From the NCBI GenBank assembly GCA_016204255.1, contig JACQLA010000003.1, positions 106,255-170,254 on the forward strand: DNA of 64,000 nt. The letters are read 5' to 3'. Under the pieces are notes generated by a model. That model ran no database searches, was not told where the DNA came from, and worked only from the letters and a program-made list of their open reading frames with translations. This stretch comes from Candidatus Microgenomates bacterium (GTDB lineage Bacteria > Patescibacteriota > Microgenomatia > JACQLA01). How positions within the stretch are numbered: the first letter of the stretch is position 1; each line of letters begins with the position of its first letter. Below are positions 7,924 to 51,585 of this stretch, piece after piece. The translations under genes were made by a program, and so were the position numbers.

Positions 7924-7973
7924 ACCGGGATTATATCAAAAAGAGGGAAGATATACAAACTATAGGTCTTTTG

Positions 7974-8048
7974 GGTGATGTACCGGATTCGAACCGGCAA
8001 CCTTCAGATTCACAGTCTGATGCTCTAACCAGTTGAGCTAACATCACC
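7974..8048 (-). tRNA. tRNA-His (GTG) with encoded G-1
   Basis: Hand-folded cloverleaf: G-1 opposite C73, acceptor GUGAUGU/ACAUCAC, D stem GCUC/GAGC, anticodon arm UCAGA-CUGUGAA-UCUGA, T arm GCCGG-UUCGAAU-CCGGU. Confidence 0.9.
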
Positions 8049-8492
8049 ATATAATTTCAAAACTTTCTTAGCCCATTGTACGATATCTTCAACCCGTGCG
8101 CCAGTAGGTTGCAATTTTGTCCAAAGTTCTAAGTTTTCGATTCTGTTATCATTTCGCGCCCCGTTTTTATGATGAACACTTTCAAAAGGTAGCAAATATC
8201 TACCTAACTTTTGTTCAAGTATAAGGCGGTGCTCAAATACTCTCCCGCTCTTATCAGCAAATGGGTGAGCCCTGTAATAAACATACAAATATCCTCTTTT
8301 ATCTACATGCCTCCTATTAGAGTAGGGATATTGCTTGCTTTGATAATAACATAGTTTACAAACTCTTGATTTCCTCTGTTTTAATCGTCCACACGCGCAA
8401 GGTCGTTTTCCCAATTGCCCCCTGCATTTGGGACATAATCGATGCCGGCTGGATGCTACATATCTCCTTTTACATTTATTGCACTCTTTCAT
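8025..8492 (-). CDS. HNH endonuclease with N-terminal Cys-rich zinc ribbon
   Basis: Track ORF 8025-8564. Likely start is M25 (ATG 8492, MKECNKCKRRY...). Several CxxC pairs, then an HNH_3-type motif SVHHKNGARNDNRIENLELW. The last 8 codons and the TAG stop lie inside the tRNA-His gene. Confidence 0.8.
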   Translation of the reverse strand: MKECNKCKRRYVASSRHRLCPKCRGQLGKRPCACGRLKQRKSRVCKLCYYQSKQYPYSNRRHVDKRGYLYVYYRAHPFADKSGRVFEHRLILEQKLGRYLLPFESVHHKNGARNDNRIENLELWTKLQPTGARVEDIVQWAKKVLKLYGDVSSTG

Positions 8493-8671
8493 AAAAACTA
8501 TGATAACAATTTGTGGAGTTGTTGTCAATTTATTTTTTAAAATAACTATGATATATATCTCCACAAGATATGAATTCCAAAATTCTCTTTCTCAATTCTT
8601 ACAACGCGCTTATGTAAATTTTAATTTCATAAACTATTCTTTTAAAAAGAAAGGAGGATAATATAGGCATT

Positions 8672-8914
8672 TTGGGATGGATAATTTTCGGTTTGGTTGT
8701 CGGCATTTTAGCTAACGTCATTGACCCGCATCCGGCCAGAGGGGGAATCCTTGCGGCGATTGTTTTGGGTATCGCCGGGGCCATAGTTGGAGGCTTTCTG
8801 GGTAGTTTGATTTTGGGAATTGGCATAAGCGGCTTCAATCTCAGCTCTCTTGCGATAGCCCTTCTTGGCTCATTATTTCTTTTGTTTCTTGGCCGCACTA
8901 TCAGCCATACTTAA
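8672..8914 (+). CDS. GlsB/YeaQ/YmgE-family small membrane protein
   Basis: 80 aa, TTG start 14 nt after GGAGG. Gly-rich TM helices (GWIIFGLVVGILANVI...GGILAAIVLGIAGAIVGGFLG) typical of the transglycosylase-associated family. Confidence 0.75.
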   Translation: MGWIIFGLVVGILANVIDPHPARGGILAAIVLGIAGAIVGGFLGSLILGIGISGFNLSSLAIALLGSLFLLFLGRTISHT

Positions 8915-9037
8915 ATCCGACTAACTTCCGGAAGGCCATCGCGTATAGGGGTTAAATGTAGGTTGATTGGCTTTTTTGCGTTTATTGACATCTTATCCTG
9001 AATTTCTTATAGTGAAGTAGGGGCAATCAGAACGAAA

Positions 9038-9310
9038 ATGCGGTATAAAAGTTTATTAGCAATTGTCGCTCTTCTACTTTTGCTAGCCTTTGTTAAACTA
9101 TTAATTTTTCCGAATAAAATTTCGTACTTCGTTAATACCCCAGCAAACACTTGCCGAGTCCCGCCGACTGGTATTTTTTATAGTTGCAAGGGTCGAACGT
9201 ATTTCGAAATGTGTAGCCCATCCTATGGGGACTTTTGTCAGCAATGCGAGTCAAGATGTTTTGGAATGGTTGAAGTAAATGGAGAAGCAATTTCGATCCT
9301 TCCATTTTAG
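9038..9310 (+). CDS. Small secreted Cys-rich protein, hypothetical
   Basis: 90-aa ORF with an N-terminal hydrophobic signal or anchor and 6 Cys. No family recognised. Confidence 0.4.
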   Translation: MRYKSLLAIVALLLLLAFVKLLIFPNKISYFVNTPANTCRVPPTGIFYSCKGRTYFEMCSPSYGDFCQQCESRCFGMVEVNGEAISILPF

Positions 9311-9470
9311 TTATCAATAACCTTTTATTTATCGAAAGTGAATTCCTGGGTTAACTGCCGGATCTGCGGGGATGTTTATTTCGTCTTCGAAAGCAAATAC
9401 TTTTCGATTTTCAGAAAATTTTTCACAAAGCGCGTGCGTAGAATTGTTAGTTAGCTGAAAAAGTCGATTT

Positions 9471-9546
9471 TGGTGCGCCTGGAGGGAATCGAACCCCCAA
9501 CCTACTCCTTAGAAGGGAGTTGCTCTATCCGTTAAGCTACAGGCGC
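9471..9546 (-). tRNA. tRNA-Arg (TCT), CCA encoded
   Basis: Cloverleaf: acceptor GCGCCUG/CAGGCGC, anticodon arm ACUCC-CUUCUAA-GGAGU, T loop UUCGAUU, 3' ACCA. Confidence 0.9.
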
Positions 9547-9657
9547 GTGCGAATTCATTTTACAAAATTTGGCCCTCCTTTGCAATTTCCTCATTGACAA
9601 AAAGCCAGGCAGGATTTTATGATTGTTTCCGCGTCGAAAGACGTTTTTTAATTTCCC

Positions 9658-10128
9658 ATGGAAAAACTTAGAACTTACACACCAGAAATTATAAGCCCTG
9701 CAGTAGTGGAAGAGTTTAAAGATTTTATCAATATTCTTTATCGCGCAACCTCTCATCCTGATAATCCGCGAGTTAAGGGGTTTAAAGACGGCTCCAACTG
9801 CCAACGTTTTGCAGTTGACGTTTTACGGGGTTGCGGTTTTACGATTCCTCATTTACGCTCTTTAGAACTCTGGCAAGATAATCCATATACATATTTGGCG
9901 GATCAGCCGGAAAAATATGATTTGGTTTTCTTCACGCCAGACTGGGAAACCGATATGCGATTTGCCCATGTTGGTGTGATAGCCGAAGTAAATAACGAAG
10001 GTAACTTTTGGGTAATTCATAATTCAAAAGAGGTGGGACGATCAAAAATCTGGTCCCTTAATCGTTTTGCGCAAACCGACCGCTATCGGGTTTTAAGAGG
10101 AATAAAGCGACCAGCTAGACTCGGTTAA
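9658..10128 (+). CDS. NlpC/P60-family (papain-like) hydrolase, cytoplasmic
   Basis: 156 aa. Order Cys (GSNCQRFA), then YDLVFF...FAHVGVIAEV, then WVIHNS, matching the C...H...H pattern and GDLVFF/HVGIY/IHA context of NlpC/P60. Confidence 0.65.
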   Translation: MEKLRTYTPEIISPAVVEEFKDFINILYRATSHPDNPRVKGFKDGSNCQRFAVDVLRGCGFTIPHLRSLELWQDNPYTYLADQPEKYDLVFFTPDWETDMRFAHVGVIAEVNNEGNFWVIHNSKEVGRSKIWSLNRFAQTDRYRVLRGIKRPARLG

Positions 10129-10178
10129 CTACTGAGGAATTTCAACCTTTATCGAATTCTTGCAAACAACGGCAATAT

Positions 10179-10313
10179 GAAGGCGGAGACGCCGGCTGCG
10201 CCTGATGGGGGAGAGGGCTAATCCGCCAGCAACCTCGCAGGAAGGTGTCGTGCTAACCAGCCAGGAACCCTGCGGTGGTAAGGGCCACGAGAAAACGTAG
10301 GTCGCGGAAGGAG
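10179..10313. ncRNA. Candidate structured RNA of unknown class (GC-rich island between convergent genes)
   Basis: No ORF. By hand count 87 of 135 nt are G+C, in an AT-rich genome. Local helices: GGCG-GAGA-CGCC (10182-10193), CGCAGG (10236-10241) with CCUGCG (10269-10274), GUGG-UAAGGG-CCAC (10275-10288). Strand and class undetermined. Confidence 0.3.
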
Positions 10314-10340
10314 TTTATTCAATTCACCACCAGCATTCGA

Positions 10341-11783
10341 CTAGAGCGCGTCTCTGATAACTTCAGTCGAAGTGGGCATCGGGGTTTGCCGCGCCTGGTC
10401 TTTGAGTTTCTTATACTCTTCCTCGCTGATGGCGTGTCCGTTTGGCGGTGAAGTCTTATAAGAATTTAATGTTTGAGAATTAACACAAGTTCGTCCTTTT
10501 GTTTCAAAATTTATACAAAGTTGATAATCTTTCCCATCCGGCTGAAGAATATATTGATAAGGAAATTTTGTTTTGGGATCGGTTGGTACAGTTTTTAAAT
10601 ATTGAGGCGCTAGTTGACTAAGGCTGGGAGGATAGTAACCGGTTGCCAAAAAATACTGATTAAGTGCCTGTTGAATCTGTATCTGGTTTACTATTCGTAC
10701 CGGATCATTTTGGGTTTTATTAATTTGTTTTGCGGGATTAAGAGCGACAGAGATTATAGCAGCAACGATACTTAAAGGAATAATTAAAAATCCGAAAATT
10801 CCGGCCAGGATTAGAATTAACTTTGTCTTTCCCGCAATAACAGCCATTTCGCCTTTAATTGATTTCGTATGCTTATAGAGAAGGAGCAAATAAACAGAGG
10901 TTAACGGCCCAATAAAGAGATTTGTAAACAAATTTAGAAAAGGGAATATAATCGCCGCAATTATGTAAAACAGACCATTAAATAGTCCAAGAACAAAAAG
11001 CCTCCAGAGAACCGGCCACCATTTCCCCCGGACATATTCACGGCTTTTTAAAAGGGCACCCAAACCACCAGTGTTTTCCAAAACCAGTAAATATCGGGAA
11101 AAAGTAAACCAGACGGAAAAAATTATTCCGGGAATAATAAAAAATATAAATCCTCCCATGACAATCAACCCGGATAAAAGGGACAATAAAAATAGCGGAA
11201 TTATTTTGGATCGACCCTTTTGATAAGAATCTTTTACGCCAATTTTTTCCCCGGCGCCATTGATGGCAAAAATCAGAGCCGCCTCACTCCAAAACTGAAC
11301 AGCTATTGTCGCGATAATTATTATTACTGTTAGAGGAATCAGAAAGAAGAGTAATCCGGGGGAAAGAAAATTGGGTAATACGTTTACGGCAGCATTTGGT
11401 AAATTTGATTCCAATGAAGTCTTTTGAAAGAAAACGCCAGAACTAATTCCCAGGCCGGCTATCAAACCCCAAATTAAAAGTTGAGCTAGTGTTGGAATTA
11501 AAACAATAACCAAAAACGTGCGCCAACTTTTTTTATAAATTTCCCATGCTTCTTTCAAAAGAGCAATTGGGCCGGGAAGCTTACCATCGACAGTTGATGA
11601 AACAGTATTTGATGGCGGTGGAGAAGGAGGTGGTTGATCCGATGACGAAATTTTCTCTTTAAAGGCCTCCTCAATATCCTGCTCCTTCCAGCCGGCAGCA
11701 ACGAGGTTATTTTTTATCTCCTCGTCGGTTTTTCCTTTTTGCAGCTGATCTTTAATGTAATTTGTTAACTGCCGATCTGGCAT
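10341..11783 (-). CDS. Polytopic membrane protein with C-terminal pilin-like (GspG/PilE-like) domain
   Basis: 480 aa. Soluble N-terminal helix, Pro-rich linker, about 8 TM helices. The C-terminal 100 aa (IQQALNQYFLATGYYPPSLSQLAPQYLKTVPTDPKT...YQL) follows the pattern of type IV pilin / T2SS pseudopilin globular domains. Confidence 0.6.
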   Translation of the reverse strand: MPDRQLTNYIKDQLQKGKTDEEIKNNLVAAGWKEQDIEEAFKEKISSSDQPPPSPPPSNTVSSTVDGKLPGPIALLKEAWEIYKKSWRTFLVIVLIPTLAQLLIWGLIAGLGISSGVFFQKTSLESNLPNAAVNVLPNFLSPGLLFFLIPLTVIIIIATIAVQFWSEAALIFAINGAGEKIGVKDSYQKGRSKIIPLFLLSLLSGLIVMGGFIFFIIPGIIFSVWFTFSRYLLVLENTGGLGALLKSREYVRGKWWPVLWRLFVLGLFNGLFYIIAAIIFPFLNLFTNLFIGPLTSVYLLLLYKHTKSIKGEMAVIAGKTKLILILAGIFGFLIIPLSIVAAIISVALNPAKQINKTQNDPVRIVNQIQIQQALNQYFLATGYYPPSLSQLAPQYLKTVPTDPKTKFPYQYILQPDGKDYQLCINFETKGRTCVNSQTLNSYKTSPPNGHAISEEEYKKLKDQARQTPMPTSTEVIRDAL

Positions 11784-11889
11784 TTTGATAAAATTTATTT
11801 AAAAAGCGTTAACTCAAGCTTATGTAAACCTATAAGAAAAGTCAAGTAGTGCTCGTGTGTATTTTGACAGGGCGAAGTATAATAACCAA

Positions 11890-12450
11890 ATGTCTGAAAA
11901 ACATTCCAAAATACCCATTATTTTTGATATCAAAAACTTTCTGAGTAAACCTCCAGGCCAACTAGCCGAGGTCGGCCAACTTCCTCGTATGCCGGATATT
12001 GATCTAATACGATGGTTGCCTACGTTAAATTACGATGCTGGACTGGTCCTTCAAGACTCAACGTGGTATGTTATTCGGGCAAGCACCATGGGTCTACCAC
12101 GCTGGCAAATGCCTCATAACTCGGAGATTTTACTTCATTCTCATCCTTATGACGGAGAAGACGAACAAAACGATGGGGGATCGATTCCGAGTATTAGCGA
12201 CTATCTTAATTGTTCCCCAACAGCAAAAAACCTAATCGTTTCTCATAGAGGAGTAACGCAATATTGGCGCGTTATCCCGGAGAAGCATCATCTTCTTGAA
12301 ATTGAAATTCACAGAACAAACTTCAGATTTGGCAAAGGTTCAAAAACCGAATACCTAAAATTTCTGGATGAAATTGGCGCAAAATTTACTGTTTATCCTT
12401 GGGAAGAGATTGATGAGGAAAAATTATCCCGGTTACTAAACACGCGTTAG
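11890..12450 (+). CDS. Hypothetical protein with a loose JAB/MPN-like His-x-His...Ser-x-x-Asp motif
   Basis: Track ORF starts at GTG 11857. ATG 11890 (MSEKHSK) is more likely. LLHSHPY...SIPSISDY resembles a JAMM motif but with atypical spacing. Confidence 0.45.
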   Translation: MSEKHSKIPIIFDIKNFLSKPPGQLAEVGQLPRMPDIDLIRWLPTLNYDAGLVLQDSTWYVIRASTMGLPRWQMPHNSEILLHSHPYDGEDEQNDGGSIPSISDYLNCSPTAKNLIVSHRGVTQYWRVIPEKHHLLEIEIHRTNFRFGKGSKTEYLKFLDEIGAKFTVYPWEEIDEEKLSRLLNTR

Positions 12451-12531
12451 AAAGAAAAAATTAAGCCATGACGCTAGTAACGGGGAAATAATTATCTAAG
12501 ACATCAATTTTGCTAATTATCATCTAAGCTC

Positions 12532-13242
12532 TTATTTTAGTAATCTTACGGCTGTAATTTGTTGTTCTATTTCAGACCAGTCAAAGTTGTCGAAAGCTAA
12601 TACTAATGCTTCAGTTGTAGATATAGGACAATATCCCCAAGCCACGGGATAATCGGATATACTAATACCATTAATAACTAAACATTTCCACCCATTGTAA
12701 GAATATTCGCGCTCAGAATAATCTTTAGTTGTAGAACCCGTAGAAATTGGATTTTCGCCCAGGATTTTATAAAGTTCATTATGCCTGGAACCTCCAGCAT
12801 AAGCTGTCAAATAGAAATTTTTATTCCATCCTAATCGACTTGATTTACCGTCGCGATTAATCCATTTTCCCGATAAATCAATCACTTTTTCCTCACCTTT
12901 TGCATCGTATCTACTTGCATCGTATCCTACTTCAAGTCGGCCGGTGGTATCTATTACTGTTTTCCAATCCGAGGGAAGACGATAAATAAGATTTTTTGAT
13001 GATTTAGTGGTAGAGGTTGTTGAAGGTGATGGGGATACAGTTGTATTTCGAGCGGAAGAGGTTTCTTTTGTAGTAGTCGTTTGTGGTACCTGCTTAAATC
13101 CCGGATTCGATATATTTGAACTTTTTGACTGTGTTCCTAAATAATATACGCCCCCAAAAACAAGAACCAAAATCGTTATTCCAAGTGCTATTAGAAAGTT
13201 GCCTCGTTGATTAAGTGAGTTTTTTGTTTTTTTAAATGCCAT
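12532..13242 (-). CDS. Membrane-anchored or secreted hypothetical protein
   Basis: 236 aa. N-terminal TM (FLIALGITILVLVFGGVYYL), Ser/Thr-rich linker, globular C-terminal domain. No family recognised. Confidence 0.55.
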   Translation of the reverse strand: MAFKKTKNSLNQRGNFLIALGITILVLVFGGVYYLGTQSKSSNISNPGFKQVPQTTTTKETSSARNTTVSPSPSTTSTTKSSKNLIYRLPSDWKTVIDTTGRLEVGYDASRYDAKGEEKVIDLSGKWINRDGKSSRLGWNKNFYLTAYAGGSRHNELYKILGENPISTGSTTKDYSEREYSYNGWKCLVINGISISDYPVAWGYCPISTTEALVLAFDNFDWSEIEQQITAVRLLK

Positions 13243-13315
13243 ATTCTCATTATTTCAGAAAAATTACTTATATGCAAATATTGTCATTTTCTGCACATTC
13301 TGGTTTACCACCATA

Positions 13316-13389
13316 TGGAGCGGGATACGGGAGTCGAACCCGTCTCTCCACCTTGGAAGGGTGGCATTGAACCGCTCAACTAATCCCGC
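13316..13389 (-). tRNA. tRNA-Gly (TCC), CCA encoded
   Basis: Cloverleaf: acceptor GCGGGAU/AUCCCGC, anticodon arm CCACC-CUUCCAA-GGUGG, T arm ACGGG-UUCGACU-CCCGU, 3' UCCA. Confidence 0.9.
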
Positions 13390-13464
13390 TTCGTCGCTTC
13401 GCTCCTCAGCGCAAGCGCCAGAATATTTTAACTTAAGTTGGGAATAAAAACAAATGAAGCAAAG

Positions 13465-13914
13465 CTAAAAGCCAACGATAGTATCGCCGATTTGAATTCC
13501 TGAGGAATCGGCAACTCCGGCATTAACCTCCAGCACCTTATCAACCACTGCTTTTGGAGAAACCAATGGCGGTTGGCCGCTATCTTGAGGGTAGGGAACA
13601 TTTTTTGTAATATCTACCACTTGACTGCCATTAATCCAGATGAAATCCAGCGGAAACTTCATGTCCTTCATCCAAAAACTGTATGCGGATTTTTGCGGAA
13701 AAACAAAAAGCATTCCTTCGTTTTGGCCAAGTGAGGGGCGACCAGATAAACCTTTTACTTTTTTTTCAGTCGTATCGGCAATTTCAACCGTTATTTTTGC
13801 TTTACCCATGGTAATAACTTTTTTTCCTTGAATCTGGAGTTGAAATTGCACAATCAAACCCGCAAGCGTAAGTGCGATGAAAATAAGAACAGGTAAAAAT
13901 AGTTTATTTTTCAT
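13465..13914 (-). CDS. DUF192-family protein
   Basis: 149 aa. Signal anchor, then GLSGRPSLGQNEGMLFVFPQKSAYSFWMKDMKFPLDFIWI, typical of DUF192/COG1430. Confidence 0.8.
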   Translation of the reverse strand: MKNKLFLPVLIFIALTLAGLIVQFQLQIQGKKVITMGKAKITVEIADTTEKKVKGLSGRPSLGQNEGMLFVFPQKSAYSFWMKDMKFPLDFIWINGSQVVDITKNVPYPQDSGQPPLVSPKAVVDKVLEVNAGVADSSGIQIGDTIVGF

Positions 13915-13917
13915 AAG

Positions 13918-14898
13918 TTATTTAGCAGTATAAGGAAAAATTAAGGTTGCATTACTATAACTTGTAATTACCTCTTTATTGGAGGGAGTAAGATTGTTTA
14001 AATCTCCCGCTTCAACTTTTACGATGTAAGGATATTTAACCCCCGGTGTTGTTGTTGCCCAACCGGTATCCGTTGAGTTAACAGAGTTAGGAAACAAATC
14101 CCATCCACCACTTTCATTTTGTTGATAGAATTTAAATGGCGCGAGGAATAATGCCTTTTCATTCTTATCATCATAGTTAAAATTACTGTCTTTATTAGCA
14201 TCTTCAAAGGCAAAAACCGAAATATGAAAATTCATTTCTTGTCTTTTTTCAAAACCAACCACAGCAAAATTATTTTTTTCTGAAACAATGATTGGTTTTG
14301 TAGTAGGGTAATAATCCTTAGTTGGCATTGGATTAATTACCAACTGATGGGGTTCACTGACCTGAATTAGGGCGGAAGCCCAACCTGATTCAGTTGAGTT
14401 AATTTTATTAAGAGGTGTGCTGGAAAAAGGGGAGTCATAAATATTTACTGGCATAAATCCTAAAGCATTATCATCCGGCTCGCGAACTCCATTCCCATTG
14501 TGATCTTCAAATGCAAATATCTGAACGGGGATACTCTTTTTACCAGTAGTCTCACCCAATACCTGAGCTTTTACCGATTTAACGATCAAATCAAACGGTA
14601 TACCGCTTTTCAATGTCAGAAATATTGAACCACCTTTGTCTGCTGGTTTGGTGGGCGGACTGGTGGGAGTAGTTGAGGGTTTTTTTGTAATTTGTGGCGG
14701 ATTTTGCGGAATTGACTGACTTTTTCCCAAGATAAAATAATAAGCGCCCGTGCCCGCCGTGATAGAAAAAATTAAAAGGACTGCAATAATTATAATCTTT
14801 TTAAAAGAGCTGGATTGTTTTACTGGAACAATAGGTTGCTCAAGAGGGGAAGATGATTGCAGAGGTTGGGCTTGCTGATTTGTATTTTCTATTTCCAT
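13918..14898 (-). CDS. Membrane-anchored secreted protein with two SdrD-B/Cna-B-like repeats
   Basis: Track ORF extends to 14976 but its first 26 codons overlap a tRNA-like 3' half. ATG 14898 (MEIENTNQQ) is preferred. TM anchor, Pro/Thr linker, duplicated FAFEDxNxxxxxxxDD modules. Confidence 0.6.
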   Translation of the reverse strand: MEIENTNQQAQPLQSSSPLEQPIVPVKQSSSFKKIIIIAVLLIFSITAGTGAYYFILGKSQSIPQNPPQITKKPSTTPTSPPTKPADKGGSIFLTLKSGIPFDLIVKSVKAQVLGETTGKKSIPVQIFAFEDHNGNGVREPDDNALGFMPVNIYDSPFSSTPLNKINSTESGWASALIQVSEPHQLVINPMPTKDYYPTTKPIIVSEKNNFAVVGFEKRQEMNFHISVFAFEDANKDSNFNYDDKNEKALFLAPFKFYQQNESGGWDLFPNSVNSTDTGWATTTPGVKYPYIVKVEAGDLNNLTPSNKEVITSYSNATLIFPYTAK

Positions 14899-14951
14899 AC
14901 TATTTATTATTACAAGGAAAAAATACAAATGCAAGAGGAACCAGAAATCAG

Positions 14952-14986
14952 TCGGGGTGGCGGGAATTGAACCCACTGCTTCTCGG
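14952..14986 (-). other. 3' half of split tRNA-like gene X (anticodon-stem 3' strand, variable loop, T arm, acceptor 3' strand, A73)
   Basis: Reads CCGAG-AAGCA-GUGGG-UUCAAUU-CCCGC-CACCCCG-A. Pairs 5/5 and 7/7 with the 5' half at 15129-15158. Confidence 0.55.
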
Positions 14987-15040
14987 TCACTAAAAATTGC
15001 GAGTCAACTTTCAGTGTAAACCTTCACCCAGAAAAATCTG

Positions 15041-15113
15041 TCGGGGATACCCGATTTGAACGGGTGGCCTCTCGCTCCCAAAGCGAGCGCTCTAGCCGCT
15101 GAGCTAATCCCCG
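15041..15113 (-). tRNA. tRNA-Pro (TGG)
   Basis: Cloverleaf: CGGGGAU-UA-GCUC-AGCGGCUA-GAGC-G-CUCGC-UUUGGGA-GCGAG-AGGCC-ACCCG-UUCAAAU-CGGGU-AUCCCCG-A (73 nt). Confidence 0.9.
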
Positions 15114-15128
15114 ATTTTTAAGGGCAAA

Positions 15129-15158
15129 CCGAGCGTTCTACCGATGAACTACACCCCG
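15129..15158 (-). other. 5' half of split tRNA-like gene X (acceptor 5' strand, D arm, anticodon-stem 5' strand)
   Basis: Reads CGGGGUG-UA-GUUC-AUCGGUA-GAAC-G-CUCGG. U8, GG in the D loop and a 4-bp D stem are all canonical. Confidence 0.55.
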
Positions 15159-15195
15159 CCGACTGCCAAGGAATTTGACGCTCAGCTACTTTTTG

Positions 15196-15280
15196 TGCCG
15201 GGGGCGGGACTCGAACCCGCACGACTTATGCAGCCAAAAGATTTTAAGTCTTTCGTGTATACCGATTTCACCACCCCGGC
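15196..15280 (-). tRNA. tRNA-Leu (TAA), class II
   Basis: GCCGGGG-UG-GUG-AAAUCGGUAUA-CAC-G-AAAGA-CUUAAAA-UCUUU, long variable arm, GCGGG-UUCGAGU-CCCGC-CCCCGGC-A. Confidence 0.9.
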
Positions 15281-15354
15281 AAAAAATAATCCCTCGTGCC
15301 TGCCTTGTCGAAGCCTCCGGCGAAGGCAGGTCTACCAGTTCCACCACCGCGGCG
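15281..15354 (-). other. tRNA-Leu-like 5' fragment Z (acceptor/D-arm-like start, 8-bp hairpin, no T arm)
   Basis: Reads GCCGCGGUGGUGGAACUGGUAGAC (Leu-type 5' end), then CCUGCCUU-CGCCGGAGGCUUCGAC-AAGGCAGG, then GCACGAGGGAUUAUUUUUU. No T arm or acceptor 3' strand follows. Confidence 0.4.
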
Positions 15355-15472
15355 CAAAAGATTTGACGCGATCCAGTTGATCGCTAGTTCGCCTTTGGCG
15401 AAGAAATCTTTCGTGCTTGCCCCGTTAATTGCAAAGCAATTTTACGGGGTATACCGATTTCACCACCCCGGC
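15355..15472 (-). pseudogene. 5' fragment Y of tRNA-Leu(TAA) (positions 1 to about 45) with hairpin insertions in the D loop and anticodon loop
   Basis: Identical to the intact gene over GCCGGGGUGGUGAAAUCGGUAUA, CACGAAAGA and AAAUCUUUUG. Interrupted by a 34-nt hairpin (15415-15448) and a 39-nt double hairpin (15365-15403). Lacks variable arm, T arm and acceptor 3' strand. Confidence 0.6.
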
Positions 15473-15511
15473 CCGCCTAGACCCGCGTCGACGCGAGGCT
15501 AACTACGCCCC
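15473..15511 (-). other. tRNA-like 5' start (GGGGCGUAGUU) fused to a GC-rich palindromic module
   Basis: Reads GGGGCGUAGUU-AGCCUCG-CGUCGACG-CGGGUCUAGGCGGGC. The module shares AGCCUCG...CUAGGCGGG with the insertion at 39813-39844. Confidence 0.3.
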
Positions 15512-15581
15512 TTCCACTCAAATCAGCAGTTTATAGTCTCATTTTACTAAAACCGGAGTATGCTTTCAACAGGAGAGGAAA

Positions 15582-16100
15582 CTACACGCGTGTGGTTTTA
15601 AAAAGAAGATCTTTGGCGTGCTCTTCAATATCAATAAAATCATCGGCCATTTCGCGCAGGTTTCTTGAGGCACTATGGCCAAAAGCCATTACTTCTACCA
15701 AACAACCTAGCGATTGCTGAAGATAATTGACCACCGGGACAAAATCCCCATCGCCACTAATCAAAACTATTGAATCGACTTTAAGACCTAAACGAATTGC
15801 GTCCATGCCAATCCCCAAATCCCAATCACCCTTTTTTGCTCCGCCAGGAAAAACCTGCAGATCCTTTTCCTTAATCTCAAATCCGGCTTCATTAACCGCC
15901 TCAAAAAAGGTTTTCTCTTTTTCCGAAATATCAGTTTTAATCACATAGGCAATAGCCCGCGTTAAAGTACGGTCAGAAACCGCCAATTTCAAAAGATTTT
16001 TAAAATTAATGCGGGAATTGTAAAGGTTTTTAGCCGAGTAATAAAGATTTTGCACATCCACCAAAACCGCTACTCTTTGATTTTTATTTCTTACTATCAT
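15582..16100 (-). CDS. NYN-domain (LabA-like, PIN-like fold) protein
   Basis: 172 aa. RVAVLVDVQNLYYS ... ISGDGDFVPVVNYLQ are the acidic motifs of NYN/LabA ribonuclease-like proteins. Confidence 0.8.
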   Translation of the reverse strand: MIVRNKNQRVAVLVDVQNLYYSAKNLYNSRINFKNLLKLAVSDRTLTRAIAYVIKTDISEKEKTFFEAVNEAGFEIKEKDLQVFPGGAKKGDWDLGIGMDAIRLGLKVDSIVLISGDGDFVPVVNYLQQSLGCLVEVMAFGHSASRNLREMADDFIDIEEHAKDLLFKTTRV

Positions 16101-35473: not shown

Positions 35474-35554
35474 CTATATTCAAATGCGGACAATCCTTTC
35501 ATAATCTGATTATATCAAAGAGGGTGCCGTGATATCCAACGCTATAGGAAAAAG

Positions 35555-35625
35555 CTGCGAGGGATGGATTCGAACCATCATAACCACCTCCAAAGGGTGA
35601 TGTCCTACCATTAGACGACCTCGCA
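35555..35625 (-). tRNA. tRNA-Gln (TTG)
   Basis: U1-A72 acceptor UGCGAGG/CCUCGCA, G73, anticodon arm UCACC-CUUUGGA-GGUGG, T arm GAUGG-UUCGAAU-CCAUC. Confidence 0.9.
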
Positions 35626-35676
35626 TTAACTTGGATAGTGCTAAAAGGGGAGCAGACTGCCCTTAAAACGAATTTG

Positions 35677-35747
35677 AGCGGGTAACGGGAGTCGAACCCG
35701 TGCCTCGTCCTTGGCAAGGACGCATAATACCGCTATACTATACCCGC
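35677..35747 (-). tRNA. tRNA-Gly (GCC)
   Basis: Acceptor GCGGGUA/UACCCGC, anticodon arm CGUCC-UUGCCAA-GGACG, T arm ACGGG-UUCGACU-CCCGU. Confidence 0.9.
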
Positions 35748-36431
35748 ACGCTCCAATGCTTGGTTATATAAATTTATCCATTCAATAATTTTTTCTTTTA
35801 ATTCACGGCTATAAACTTGTATCGAACAAACTCCATGATCTACTTTTCTTTTTTTCTCTCTACCAAGAATATACTGAGATTTAACAAATTGTTCTTGCGA
35901 AACTCCAAGTATTTTACTCCAATATTCTTTACATATTTTTTCATTAAGGTCAGGGTAAAGAAGTAACCACAATCTAATTTTTCCTAATTGAATCTGGCAA
36001 CAAACTCTTAAAAAGGCGATAAAAATTTTTAGTAATCGATAATCAATATTAGAAATGCGCACTATTCCATTCTTTAGTCTTTTATCACCTTCTCCCCAAT
36101 AAATCATTAAACCAGGTCCAAAAAGCGGCATTGAGAACAACTTAGGGAATTCTTGGGTCGCTTGATTCCTATAGTTTAAATGAATTCTCCGCCACTTTTC
36201 CTTATTGGCTTGAGCCATTAATTTCAATTTCTCAATCGCTTTTTCCTGAGCCCGCTTTATTAAAACCTTCTTGACTCGAGATGAATAAACATCTGCCTTA
36301 AACCAGTTGGAAAGAGTGCTTTTAGGGATACCCAACTCTCGACTTATTGTGTTATAGCTTCTCTGTTTTTTTCGTAATGTAAAAGCCTTTTTTTTGAGTT
36401 TATTTTTATTTATTGAACTAACGTATGCCAT
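35733..36431 (-). CDS. HTH + LAGLIDADG-like putative homing endonuclease inside a tRNA array
   Basis: 232 aa. N-terminal HTH (RSYNTISRELGIPKSTLSNWF). GPGLMIYWGEGDK resembles a LAGLIDADG motif. The last 5 codons and the TAG stop lie inside tRNA-Gly(GCC). Family call is tentative. Confidence 0.5.
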   Translation of the reverse strand: MAYVSSINKNKLKKKAFTLRKKQRSYNTISRELGIPKSTLSNWFKADVYSSRVKKVLIKRAQEKAIEKLKLMAQANKEKWRRIHLNYRNQATQEFPKLFSMPLFGPGLMIYWGEGDKRLKNGIVRISNIDYRLLKIFIAFLRVCCQIQLGKIRLWLLLYPDLNEKICKEYWSKILGVSQEQFVKSQYILGREKKRKVDHGVCSIQVYSRELKEKIIEWINLYNQALERAGIV

Positions 36432-36482
36432 TATATTTAATGATATAACGTCAGTTTTTATTTTTCAAAGAGCAAAATTTAG

Positions 36483-36555
36483 TGCCGAGGCTCAGAGTTG
36501 CACTGAGATCTCATGTTTTTCAGACACGCGCCGTGACTACCTTGGCTACCTCGGC
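36483..36555 (-). tRNA. tRNA-Phe (GAA) with atypical T loop
   Basis: Acceptor GCCGAGG/CCUCGGC, A73, anticodon arm CGUGU-CUGAAAA-ACAUG, T arm CUCAG-UGCAACU-CUGAG (G at position 55). Confidence 0.75.
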
Positions 36556-36606
36556 ATACCGGAGTATTTTATCCGACTTTGGCTTTCACTTCAAGCCTGT
36601 TATTTG

Positions 36607-36680
36607 TGGGCTTGCCAGGATTCGAACCTGGGACCTTCTCGATGTAAACGAGACGCTCTAACCAACTGAGCCACAAGCCC
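36607..36680 (-). tRNA. tRNA-Val (TAC)
   Basis: GGGCUUG-UG-GCUC-AGUUGGUUA-GAGC-G-UCUCG-UUUACAU-CGAGA-AGGUC-CCAGG-UUCGAAU-CCUGG-CAAGCCC-A. Confidence 0.9.
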
Positions 36681-36685
36681 TTACT

Positions 36686-36772
36686 TGGTGCGGACGAGAG
36701 GACTTGAACCTCCACGACCTTGCGGTCACAGGCTCCTCAAGCCTGCCTGTCTACCGATTCCAGCACGTCCGC
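36686..36772 (-). tRNA. tRNA-Leu (GAG), class II, CCA encoded
   Basis: Acceptor GCGGACG/CGUCCGC, anticodon arm CAGGC-UUGAGGA-GCCUG, long variable arm, T arm GGAGG-UUCAAGU-CCUCU, ACCA. Confidence 0.9.
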
Positions 36773-39398: not shown

Positions 39399-39483
39399 TG
39401 GTGCCGAAGGTGGGACTTGAACCCACACCCCTTGCGGGACACGGCCCTGAACCGTGCGCGTCTGCCAATTCCGCCACTTCGGC
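39399..39483 (-). tRNA. tRNA-Leu (CAG), class II, CCA encoded
   Basis: GCCGAAG-UG-GCG-GAAUUGGCAGA-CGC-G-CACGG-UUCAGGG-CCGUG, variable arm, GUGGG-UUCAAGU-CCCAC-CUUCGGC-ACCA. Confidence 0.9.
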
Positions 39484-39497
39484 CTGATAACTTAGTT

Positions 39498-39752
39498 TTA
39501 TTTTAAAACGTGCGTAAACAAATTTTTCTTCATCCAACGACGCCCTACAGCTGATTTAAAATATTTTTCTCTTTTGATTACTTCTTCTAAGGTAGCAAAA
39601 AAATCCGAATAAATAATTTCCCATGGTCTATATCGTTTACTGAAGATACTGTTGCCATTATTGTGTTGAATAAGTCTTCGTTCCAGGTTGTCTGTGTGAC
39701 CAACGTATGTTTTTTCAGCTACTCGACTTTTAAGAATATACACGACGTACAT
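39498..39752 (-). CDS. GIY-YIG nuclease-domain protein (UPF0213-like)
   Basis: 84 aa. VVYILKSRVAEKTYVGHTDNLERRLIQHN ... KREKYFK matches the GIY-(x10)-YVG, R and E/N positions of GIY-YIG. Confidence 0.85.
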   Translation of the reverse strand: MYVVYILKSRVAEKTYVGHTDNLERRLIQHNNGNSIFSKRYRPWEIIYSDFFATLEEVIKREKYFKSAVGRRWMKKNLFTHVLK

Positions 39753-39854
39753 TTGCGCGTCTACCCGCCTCGACTCGACCGACGTCGAGTGGGGCGAGGC
39801 GGGTCAATTCCGCCCGCCTAGCCTTGACGTCTAGTCGAGGCTGGCCACTTCGGC
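39753..39854 (-). pseudogene. 5' fragment of tRNA-Leu(CAG) (positions 1 to about 28) carrying two GC-rich hairpin insertions
   Basis: GCCGAAGUGG + 32-nt insert (39813-39844) + CGGAAUUG + 42-nt hairpin (39763-39804) + AGACGCGCA, then A-AUG of the GIY-YIG ORF. The three tRNA-derived blocks (27 nt) are identical to the intact gene 270 nt downstream. Confidence 0.65.
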
Positions 39855-51447: not shown

Positions 51448-51585
51448 TGTCATTTCGAGCCCCGATTAAATCGGGGCGAGAAATCTAACGAAGCCGTGTC
51501 TGATGTGGCGAAGCGTAAATTGCGGCACTTCGTGCCTACCTGCCTCGCAGCAAGGCGGGGATTTCTCATTTCATTCGAAATGACC
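51448..51585. repeat. Inverted-repeat element, long composite member
   Basis: TGTCATTTCGAGCCCCGATTAAATCGGGGCGAGAAATCTAACGAAG...GGGGATTTCTCATTTCATTCGAAATGAC, 138 bp. Confidence 0.7.

Follow-up and report, generated by a model that had tools for sequence, protein, structure and literature searches.

The locus described here lies in a 64-kb window, the whole stretch of DNA that was analysed, from a Candidatus Microgenomates bacterium (Patescibacteria), and holds one tRNA-Pro gene lodged within the anticodon loop of another. We call this arrangement a nest, and all coordinates of its parts are on the minus strand. The 5' half of the outer tRNA-Pro(UGG), covering positions 1-31 of the molecule, occupies 15158-15129 (CGGGGTGTAGTTCATCGGTAGAACGCTCGG) and supplies the acceptor 5' strand, the D arm and the anticodon-stem 5' strand, while the 3' half at 14986-14952 (CCGAGAAGCAGTGGGTTCAATTCCCGCCACCCCGA) supplies the anticodon-stem 3' strand, the variable loop, the T arm, the acceptor 3' strand and A73. 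Both halves have the sequences that an earlier note on this DNA had read by hand, and its count of 7/7 acceptor and 5/5 anticodon-stem pairs between them is confirmed; the D stem (4/4) and the T stem (5/5) pair as well, and the conserved residues of the D and T loops are present. The halves are separated by 142 nt without any open reading frame (ORF), within which lies a complete tRNA-Pro(UGG) different from the outer one (15113-15041, no encoded CCA). The note had claimed such an interruption, and both ARAGORN, which calls tRNA-Pro(TGG) at 15040-15113, and the Rfam tRNA model (15041-15113, 65.7 bits) recover the inner gene.

The anticodon of the outer tRNA, which the note had left unassigned, emerges when the loop is read in three pieces: UUUG (positions 32-35; 15128-15125), GG (15022-15021) and A (A38; 14987), parted by 97 nt and 33 nt, together spell UUUGGGA, the loop of tRNA-Pro(UGG), and intact homologues read CTCGG-TTTGGGA-CCGAG. 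The succession UUUG, insert A, GG, insert B, A accounts for the whole loop, and the interruption can be read as two insertions: insert A, made up of a stalk, the tRNA at its apex and TGAA, between G35 and G36, and insert B, made up of TTTA and an empty hairpin, between G37 and A38. The stalk 5' strand, CCCTTAAAAAT (15124-15114), abuts nucleotide +1 of the inner tRNA and pairs with 15027-15037; the 3' strand, ATTTTTCTGGG (15037-15027), recognized by sequence, fold and covariation, is set off from the inner gene by the spacer CAG (15040-15038). Recounting GCCCUUAAAAAU against AUUUUUCUGGGU gives the 9 Watson-Crick pairs, 1 G-U and 2 mismatches that the note reported for this stalk. Next comes the conserved motif TGAA-GG-TTTA (TGAAGGTTTA, 15026-15017), whose central GG is read as G36 and G37 of the outer loop, and then the 'empty' 12-bp AT-rich hairpin of insert B, CACTGAAAGTTG..CAATTTTTAGTG (15016-14988), which is apparent in the fold and belongs to the same repeat family as the stalk arms; the covariance model R1 scores 70.9 bits at this module.

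The minimum free energy (MFE) fold of the 221-nt region is a nested double cloverleaf joined by the stalk, plus the hairpin, at -92.1 kcal/mol (z = -5.2, with 0/200 shuffles as good). The ARAGORN and covariance-model check proposed in the note bears out the inner gene and leaves the outer one uncalled: it is found by neither ARAGORN nor Rfam in default modes, and it has no contiguous 7-nt anticodon loop. When the inner gene is deleted in silico, ARAGORN reports a 'tRNA-Thr(tgt)' with an intron, a call that is an artefact of the boundaries. No intron or ribozyme family was returned by cmscan of 14700-15800 at E <= 10; the hits of that region to transfer-messenger RNA (tmRNA, 13.9 bits) and to the Y RNA YrlA (25.9 bits) are below threshold and explained by the T arm and acceptor stem. 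The nest is also present in GCA_964420235.1 and in independent Logan assemblies, one contig of which (L271, from SRR4343430) matches 15154->13316 at 100% identity and spans both junctions, so that the arrangement is not an assembly artefact of one metagenome-assembled genome (MAG). Other, unitig-style Logan contigs end at 15129 or 15131 (L002, L003), just where the 30-nt outer 5' half ends, which might be taken for heterogeneity of the nest; paralogous tRNA-Pro genes share the 30-nt 5' half, and the simplest account of these ends is GGG or CGG isoacceptors with the same 30-mer within one genome or sample, for instance a GGG gene with the loop CTGGGGG or ATGGGGT.

To what kind of tRNA-Pro does the shell, as we call the two outer halves, belong? 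A scan for the 5' half over one genome per species, with four positions left free, returned 71 loci, nearly all from Patescibacteria of the Microgenomates group. In 66 of them the gene is an uninterrupted tRNA-Pro with the loop TTTGGGA, TTCGGGA or xTGGGGx, and in the other five it is interrupted at the same place as in the window; with orphan halves located by BLAST taken into account, 7/71 genome loci with this tRNA type carry nests or adjoining orphan halves. The window 5' half is identical at 30/30 positions to that of intact tRNA-Pro genes from over 40 Patescibacteria genomes, the 3' half, which BLAST also recovers as an orphan, matches L009 and L066 at 34/35 positions, and the outer tRNA, once reconstructed, shares 99% identity with the intact gene of L009. 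Because it matches these intact genes, the shell is, judged by sequence, the lineage-typical, resident-type tRNA-Pro(UGG) of Patescibacteria. The inner tRNA is only 73% identical to its own shell and 88% identical to the middle, cargo tRNA of another nest (L015). Homologues of PheT and DUF192 confirm the host as a member of Patescibacteria / Candidatus Microgenomates; the best non-self PheT match is 61% identical, and there is no close sequenced relative. The comparison of orthologous loci that the note recommended, pursued through DUF192 homologues, yielded no syntenic locus among the nearest relatives (55-63% identity). The gene order tRNA-Leu(UAA)-tRNA-Pro(UGG) is common to the window, L033, L085, L098 and L114, with the tRNA-Pro intact in L033. 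In the window tRNA-Leu(UAA) (15195-15280, called by ARAGORN and Rfam) lies 36 nt upstream of the outer 5' half, no promoter-like site was seen between the two, and the tRNA-Leu and the nest are probably co-transcribed. For the window position, the empty-site form would be CTCGGTTTGGGACCGAG, the anticodon-loop DNA of the tRNA-Pro gene being CTCGGTTYGGGACCGAG. The inner gene is probably the working one, and the shell a recent pseudogene.

The window nest is one of a recurrent family, a point absent from the earlier note, as were the identity of the outer gene as tRNA-Pro(UGG) and the division of the interruption into two insertions. Widening the set with a metagenome scan, in which a 5' half had to be followed by a non-canonical loop, and with the BLAST scan for orphan halves brought the number of distinct nest loci in Microgenomates genomes and metagenomes to about 20. 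All are broken between 34/35 and 36/37, a site constant to within 1-2 nt, and they fall into two cassette classes. Class 1, represented by the window, by L085 (= L087 = L136), L098, L023 and L130 and by both layers of L015, has the layout 5' half-TTYG, stalk a, tRNA, CNG, stalk a', T[AG]AA-GG(G)-YTYR, a 12-13-bp hairpin with arms resembling a/a', and A-3' half. Class 2 (L041, L063, L057, L114, L019, L076, L080, L113, L116, L124 and L137) has GC-rich linkers around the inner tRNA, either CCTGCCCGCC... / ...GGCAGGCGGG or GCCCGCCTGACTTGAAATGA / CAAGTCATTTCGGGCAGG, and a single interruption at 35/36 or 36/37. No description of a tRNA within a tRNA in bacteria was found in the literature searched, and the nested arrangement, up to four layers deep and present in many related genomes, seems to be undescribed.

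Within class 1 the parts of the cassette and those of the shell are conserved in register. The motif T[AG]AA-GG(G)-YTYR occurs in all eight modules seen, and in each of the five complete nests the 5' piece (TTTG, TTCG or TTC), GG or GGG, and A add up to a 7-nt Pro loop. The break follows G35 in every class-1 nest except the middle layer of L015, where it follows C34; there TTC as the 5' piece goes with GGG in the motif, the number of G shifting in step with the 5' piece. Class-2 loops are likewise restored, as TTCG+GGA or TTTGG+GA. In an alignment of the five complete shells without their inner genes, pairing holds in 97.2% of 215 cells and 18/44 pairs change on both sides, a level of pairing that 0/500 shuffles reach and that stands against 37-52% in slid controls; every one of the 105 outer stem cells is paired. 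The stalk helix is kept in 5 nests with both sides changed in 3/12 pairs, and the hairpin covaries too, for example CACUG/CAGUG versus UCCUG/CAGGA. The inverted-repeat arms of stalk and hairpin (YCCTG/CACTG.AAA...) constitute one repeat family, conserved and covarying in 8 modules, and the arms of class 2 recur within the D loops of relic tRNAs. These comparisons bear on a further proposal of the note, that a displaced 5' fragment stands next to a resident copy whose own 5' part, CUGGGUGAAGG..., has decayed. Displaced tRNA fragments are indeed common in this genome, whereas CUGGGUGAAGG... is no decayed 5' part: it is the cassette module itself, comprising the stalk 3' strand, TRAA-GG-YTYR and the hairpin, it covaries with the stalk 5' strand, and its pairing with the outer acceptor strand, 6/7 in the window, is found there only and disappears in L085, L098 and L015.

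The shells are found in all states of preservation. L015 consists of three layers whose halves mirror one another. In L090 a run of four 5' halves, of which two bear point mutations, precedes one intact gene, and after that gene only degraded 3' pieces are left. L023 begins with a mutated 5' half containing two D-loop palindromes and continues with an intact gene and three tandem units of module plus 3' half, the first two of which score 58 and 57 bits with R1 and the third of which is degenerate and gives no R1 hit. L085 and L098 each have one additional outermost 5' half without a partner. L057, L116, L124, L137 and L092/L118 have kept 5' halves and no 3' half, and in these as well as in L023 and L090 an outer half has been lost or damaged and the inner gene is intact. 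Extra D-loop palindromes of the same two families are found in relic halves of L019, L076, L023, L116 and L098. Intact, mutated and truncated shells thus form the series expected of pseudogenes, which suggests that the shells are dispensable.

The perfectly restored loops raise the question of whether the outer tRNA might still be functional. In that case inserts A and B would be removed, the three loop pieces ligated, and two to three tRNA-Pro obtained from each locus by protein-dependent splicing. The shells themselves speak for such a process where they are complete, given that in 5/5 class-1 nests a perfect Pro loop of 7 nt is restored by UUUG/GG/A or TTC/GGG/A and that class-2 loops are restored as described, that the outer stems pair at 100% and show compensatory differences from nest to nest, and that both inserts are compact, hairpin-like and seated in the loop; Patescibacteria also tolerate tRNA introns at 35/36 (PMC13011429). 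We nevertheless consider a functional outer tRNA highly improbable. Neither a group I core nor any other Rfam ribozyme was found at E <= 10, position -1 is G rather than U, and a group I intron would need a longer insert. The fold is a three-way junction, and inspection of it revealed no evident bulge-helix-bulge motif (a 3-nt bulge, a 4-bp helix and a 3-nt bulge), although no dedicated search was made. We know of no bacterial tRNA splicing endonuclease, and found no literature linking such an enzyme to Patescibacteria. Many loci have kept the inner gene and lost or wrecked the outer half, relic shells gather extra D-loop palindromes, and a spliced outer tRNA would be redundant, the inner anticodon being identical. 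Inner and outer anticodons agree in 17/20 layers, as would be expected if the shell were dead and the isoacceptor single-copy and essential. The functional nested or split gene that the note had listed as its first option has consequently no positive support, in view of the damaged shells, the matching anticodons and the want of a known splicing signal.

A shell that no longer yields a tRNA could still have been exapted, its halves being retained as a tRNA-shaped leader and trailer clamp that aids folding or processing of the inner pre-tRNA or keeps the homologous 5' half from mispairing. Such a role would account for the faultless outer stems of five diverged nests, for the two compensatory pairs that distinguish the outer acceptor stems of L019 and L076, and for the separation of the two cloverleaves in the predicted MFE structure. 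Compensatory differences are equally well explained, however, by independent invasion of resident genes that had already diverged, and it is common for loci to have 5' halves alone or 3' halves alone around inner genes that look normal, which makes exaptation in our view a very unlikely explanation.

Several comparisons suggest that the cassette has moved between genomes. The class 2b linkers (20 + 18 nt = 38 nt) are identical in L019, L076, L080 and L113, and L116, which has lost the 3' side, has the identical 20-nt 5' linker; these five loci carry four different cargo tRNAs, and their hosts are unalignable outside the nest. Between L019 and L076, 108/110 positions of the cassette are identical and the shell halves are 86-89% identical, with two compensatory pair differences in the outer acceptor stem and unalignable flanks. 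The window inner tRNA, too, has its nearest counterpart (88%) not in its own shell but in the cargo of the class-1 nest L015. In the R1 scan the class-1 module was found only beside orphan 3' halves and never after un-nested tRNA-Pro genes, and it is therefore not a native flank. With stalk and hairpin covarying and the motif conserved, the cassette is under a constraint of its own. Could the nests instead be the scars of repeated replacement of tRNA-Pro, produced without any dedicated mobile element by illegitimate or short-homology recombination, natural transformation or local duplication, with stalk and hairpin representing native flanks or processing signals of the donor? Transfer RNA genes are recombination hot spots, the cargo varies in a constant context, and the inner tRNA type sometimes equals that of an outer layer (L023, L098 layer 0). 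Two Logan contigs, in which a different upstream context is joined exactly at the inner tRNA, may be counted on the same side: L269 and L270 (SRR12113424 / SRR12113430) are 99.9% identical to window 15113-13319, from the first base of the inner tRNA onward, with two mismatches, both in the D loop. Upstream they are entirely different, with a 222-aa ORF bearing a twin-arginine-like signal and without the outer 5' half, the stalk strand, tRNA-Leu and the NYN gene; their junction is either a chimera of the de Bruijn graph or genuine variation between strains, with the breakpoint inside the tRNA. Replacement alone is nonetheless unlikely to have produced break points that coincide to 1-2 nt in about 20 independent loci, linkers in two sharply conserved classes, identical 38-nt linkers in otherwise unalignable genomes, and a class-1 module which, never following an un-nested tRNA-Pro, is no native flank of a donor.

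The explanation we favour, with a probability of roughly 0.6, is that a mobile, tRNA-bearing palindromic cassette invaded the anticodon loop of a resident tRNA-Pro(UGG), so that the inner gene would now be the working one and the shell a pseudogene. The resident gene is destroyed by the insertion, which brings with it another gene of identical anticodon. This corresponds to the second option of the note, a tRNA gene destroyed by insertion of a tRNA-Pro-bearing segment, which is the reading that the comparative data support. In the window, insert A would represent an 11-bp leader/trailer stalk with a foreign-type tRNA-Pro(UGG) at its apex, and insert B an empty hairpin. Transcription would start from the resident upstream promoter, probably together with tRNA-Leu(UAA); RNase P would cut the transcript at nucleotide +1 of the inner tRNA, which would be completed by a 3' nuclease and by the CCA-adding enzyme, and the outer halves and linkers would be discarded as structured leader and trailer. 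Since the cassette tRNA would be a fresh copy of the target, later invasions could enter the inner gene, and nests resembling Russian dolls would build up, as older shells decayed through point mutation, deletion and further palindrome insertions. Comparison of the loci suggests that the cassette may spread by homing-type gene conversion, in which the tRNA halves would act as homology arms, or else through the palindromic frame, by its transposition or recombination. As a driver, the small free-standing GIY-YIG nucleases, which invade tRNA genes of these genomes too, are no more than a candidate.

Several observations weigh against this explanation. There is no transposase, integrase or nuclease inside or adjoining the nest, and neither a target-site duplication nor a clean terminal repeat marks the ends of the cassette at the junctions. 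The genes around the window nest encode NYN, cyclophilin, CorA, DUF192 and unknown proteins, and no shared recombinase family, integrase, transposase or shared nuclease gene was found near 15 nests. The five complete class-1 shells are without any stem mismatch and have kept all seven loop nucleotides including GG, and such perfection would be compatible, too, with an outer RNA under purifying selection. Class-1 nests occupy one syntenic locus in organisms whose PheT is only ~50% identical, so that either the same target must have been invaded independently or the nests must have been retained for long. The variable cargo within constant class 2b linkers is not explained by a cassette consisting of linkers plus a fixed tRNA, and no pair of empty and filled sites was found within one species.

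How does the nest compare with elements already known to interrupt tRNA genes? Integrative elements such as prophages and genomic islands integrate in tRNA genes and carry a copy of the part they displace, as is reported, for example, by Williams 2002. The nest resembles them in having a tRNA target, often the anticodon loop, in the compensation of the damage, in the fragments left behind and in the reusable site. Integrative elements, however, measure kilobases, encode an integrase, duplicate only the 3' (rarely the 5') part of the gene and leave direct repeats, whereas the cassette of ~110-140 nt carries a whole tRNA gene and leaves complementary halves rather than duplicates; around the 142-nt insert of the window there is no integrase nearby and no attL/attR direct repeat of a tRNA segment. 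The published tRNA introns of Patescibacteria belong to group I and have been found in tRNAs for Asn, Asp, Met, Phe, Tyr and Thr only, with no case in tRNA-Pro and no nested tRNA (PMC13011429, 2026). They share with the nest the phylum, the kind of host gene, the 35/36 site, at which insert A also interrupts the anticodon loop, and the tendency of tRNA finders to miss or mis-assign the gene (PMC13011429). The nest differs in lacking a catalytic core (RF00028 or related), in having G and not U at position -1, and in consisting of two separate insertions within a 142-nt insert that is more than half tRNA gene. The 5' exon ends in G35, and no single excision restores UUUGGGA.

Archaeal introns may carry another RNA, as does the tRNA-Trp intron of Haloferax with its C/D box sRNA. 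The split, permuted and multi-intron tRNAs of Archaea (PMC3218864) offer parallels in halves that are separated in the DNA, loop interruptions including 37/38, and a second RNA inside; they depend on bulge-helix-bulge motifs, a splicing endonuclease and a ligase, whereas the nest resides in a bacterium and has no such motif apparent. MITE-like repeats (miniature inverted-repeat transposable elements, including Correia and REP-type repeats) and nested transposons share with the cassettes the inverted-repeat arms, which are conserved here, the 'empty' and 'loaded' forms, the nested insertions and the presence of copies at other sites of the same genomes (window 15420-15448 and the D loops of relic tRNAs). 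The nests differ from them in sitting in the loops of tRNA genes and in carrying as cargo the same gene as the target, and neither a target-site duplication nor a transposase was found. The family appears to be an undescribed one of tRNA-loaded palindromic cassettes nesting in the tRNA-Pro genes of Patescibacteria.

A further parallel is provided by SegB of phage T4, a free-standing GIY-YIG homing endonuclease in a tRNA gene cluster (PMC2330249), that is, a selfish element tied to tRNA genes; the genomes with nests have 84-aa GIY-YIG ORFs between a 5' fragment and an intact tRNA gene. In the window such an ORF (39498-39752, minus strand; Pfam 64.5 bits) has its start 1 nt beyond a tRNA-Leu(CAG) 5' fragment with a GC-rich palindrome in its D loop (39754-39854) and ends 14 nt before the intact tRNA-Leu(CAG) (39399-39483). 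The same succession of fragment, ORF and intact tRNA is found in L058 (tRNA-Leu(UAA)) and L061 (tRNA-Pro(UGG)), the fragment in all three loci being broken near 25/26 and provided with a GC-rich D-loop palindrome, and the intact tRNA following 6-26 nt after the ORF; degenerate versions precede tRNA-Val, tRNA-Gln and tRNA-Phe in L036, L076 and L098. This shows that tRNA genes in these genomes are a general target of selfish DNA that compensates for its damage. The GIY-YIG elements differ from the nests in breaking the gene at ~25/26 and not in the anticodon loop, and the nest at 14952-15158 contains no ORF: no nuclease ORF was found in the 142 nt or adjoining the window nest, whereas GIY-YIG ORFs are present ~0.5 kb from the nest in L085 and directly after the inner tRNA in L116. 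Any link between the two kinds of element is put forward as a hypothesis only.

If the cassettes are indeed mobile, they would represent a new selfish strategy, in which an element breaks an essential single-copy tRNA gene and carries a working copy that recreates its own target; this recreation by the carried gene explains the nesting of one layer within another. They would also account for many unexplained tRNA fragments in Patescibacteria genomes, could serve as a marker for recent exchange of DNA between ultra-small bacteria that are otherwise hard to compare, and would point to an activity that acts with precision on the anticodon-loop DNA of tRNA-Pro genes. Annotation of tRNA genes calls for caution, as a shell may be annotated as a Thr, Ser or Arg gene with an intron. 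Should the shells be spliced after all, Bacteria would have their first case of protein-dependent tRNA splicing.

Several other interpretations were tried and abandoned. The conserved motif could be taken for a degenerate D arm or part of a permuted tRNA, as GUG-UAAAGGUUUA-CAC is similar to the D arm in certain phage tRNAs; it proved impossible to draw the remainder of such a tRNA. Its derivation from a duplication of positions 30-35 (GGTTTR) fails for the middle and outer layers of L015. Models of att sites for serine or tyrosine recombinases with a 2-bp crossover predict ...GTGGGACCGAG at the right junction, where GTGACCGAG is observed. A phage origin was examined in two scans of viral contigs, whose hits were all due to chance or to ordinary tRNAs; no copy of the nest was among them. 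A permissive hairpin scan of the window proved too noisy for use.

Other tRNA fragments and palindromes lie close to the nest. A tRNA-Leu 5' fragment at 15449-15472 (minus strand) is identical at 24/24 positions to the intact tRNA-Leu(UAA) downstream; behind it come an AT-rich hairpin (15420-15448, CCCGTAAAATTGC TTT GCAATTAACGGGG), which belongs to the class-1 hairpin family, and then a decayed continuation of the tRNA. A second fragment, at 15330-15353 (minus strand), is 79% identical and precedes a different hairpin. GC-rich palindromic repeats (..TAGGCGGGC.. / CCTGCC..GGCGGG), related to the class-2 linkers and adjoining tRNA fragments, occur at 15471-15505 (minus strand), 39765-39850 (minus strand) and ~51535-51565 (plus strand). 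Apart from the nest, L019 and L076 share no sequence except a 42-nt palindrome of this GC-rich kind, GCCTGCCCGCCGAAGTTCCGAAGGAACGTAGGCGGG. In L080 a second intact tRNA-Pro(CGG) lies on the opposite strand ~120 nt upstream of the class-2b nest (2273-2345 on the minus and 2520-2592 on the plus strand), so that at least this genome holds two live genes for that isoacceptor. Directly upstream of the tRNA-Leu/tRNA-Pro cluster of the window is the gene for a protein with an NYN domain, which has a PIN-like nuclease fold (15582-16100, minus strand). The 64 kb contain 13 tRNA genes, mostly in minus-strand clusters (35554-36772 and 7973-15280), and the order of the Gln-Gly-Phe-Val-Leu cluster at 35.5-36.8 kb is conserved in L098 (4517-5523). 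Among the loci L006-L076, many third-party annotation (TPA) MAGs titled 'uncultured Gammaproteobacteria bacterium' carry tRNA-Pro genes and neighbourhoods of the Microgenomates type, and the label is probably a placeholder or an error.

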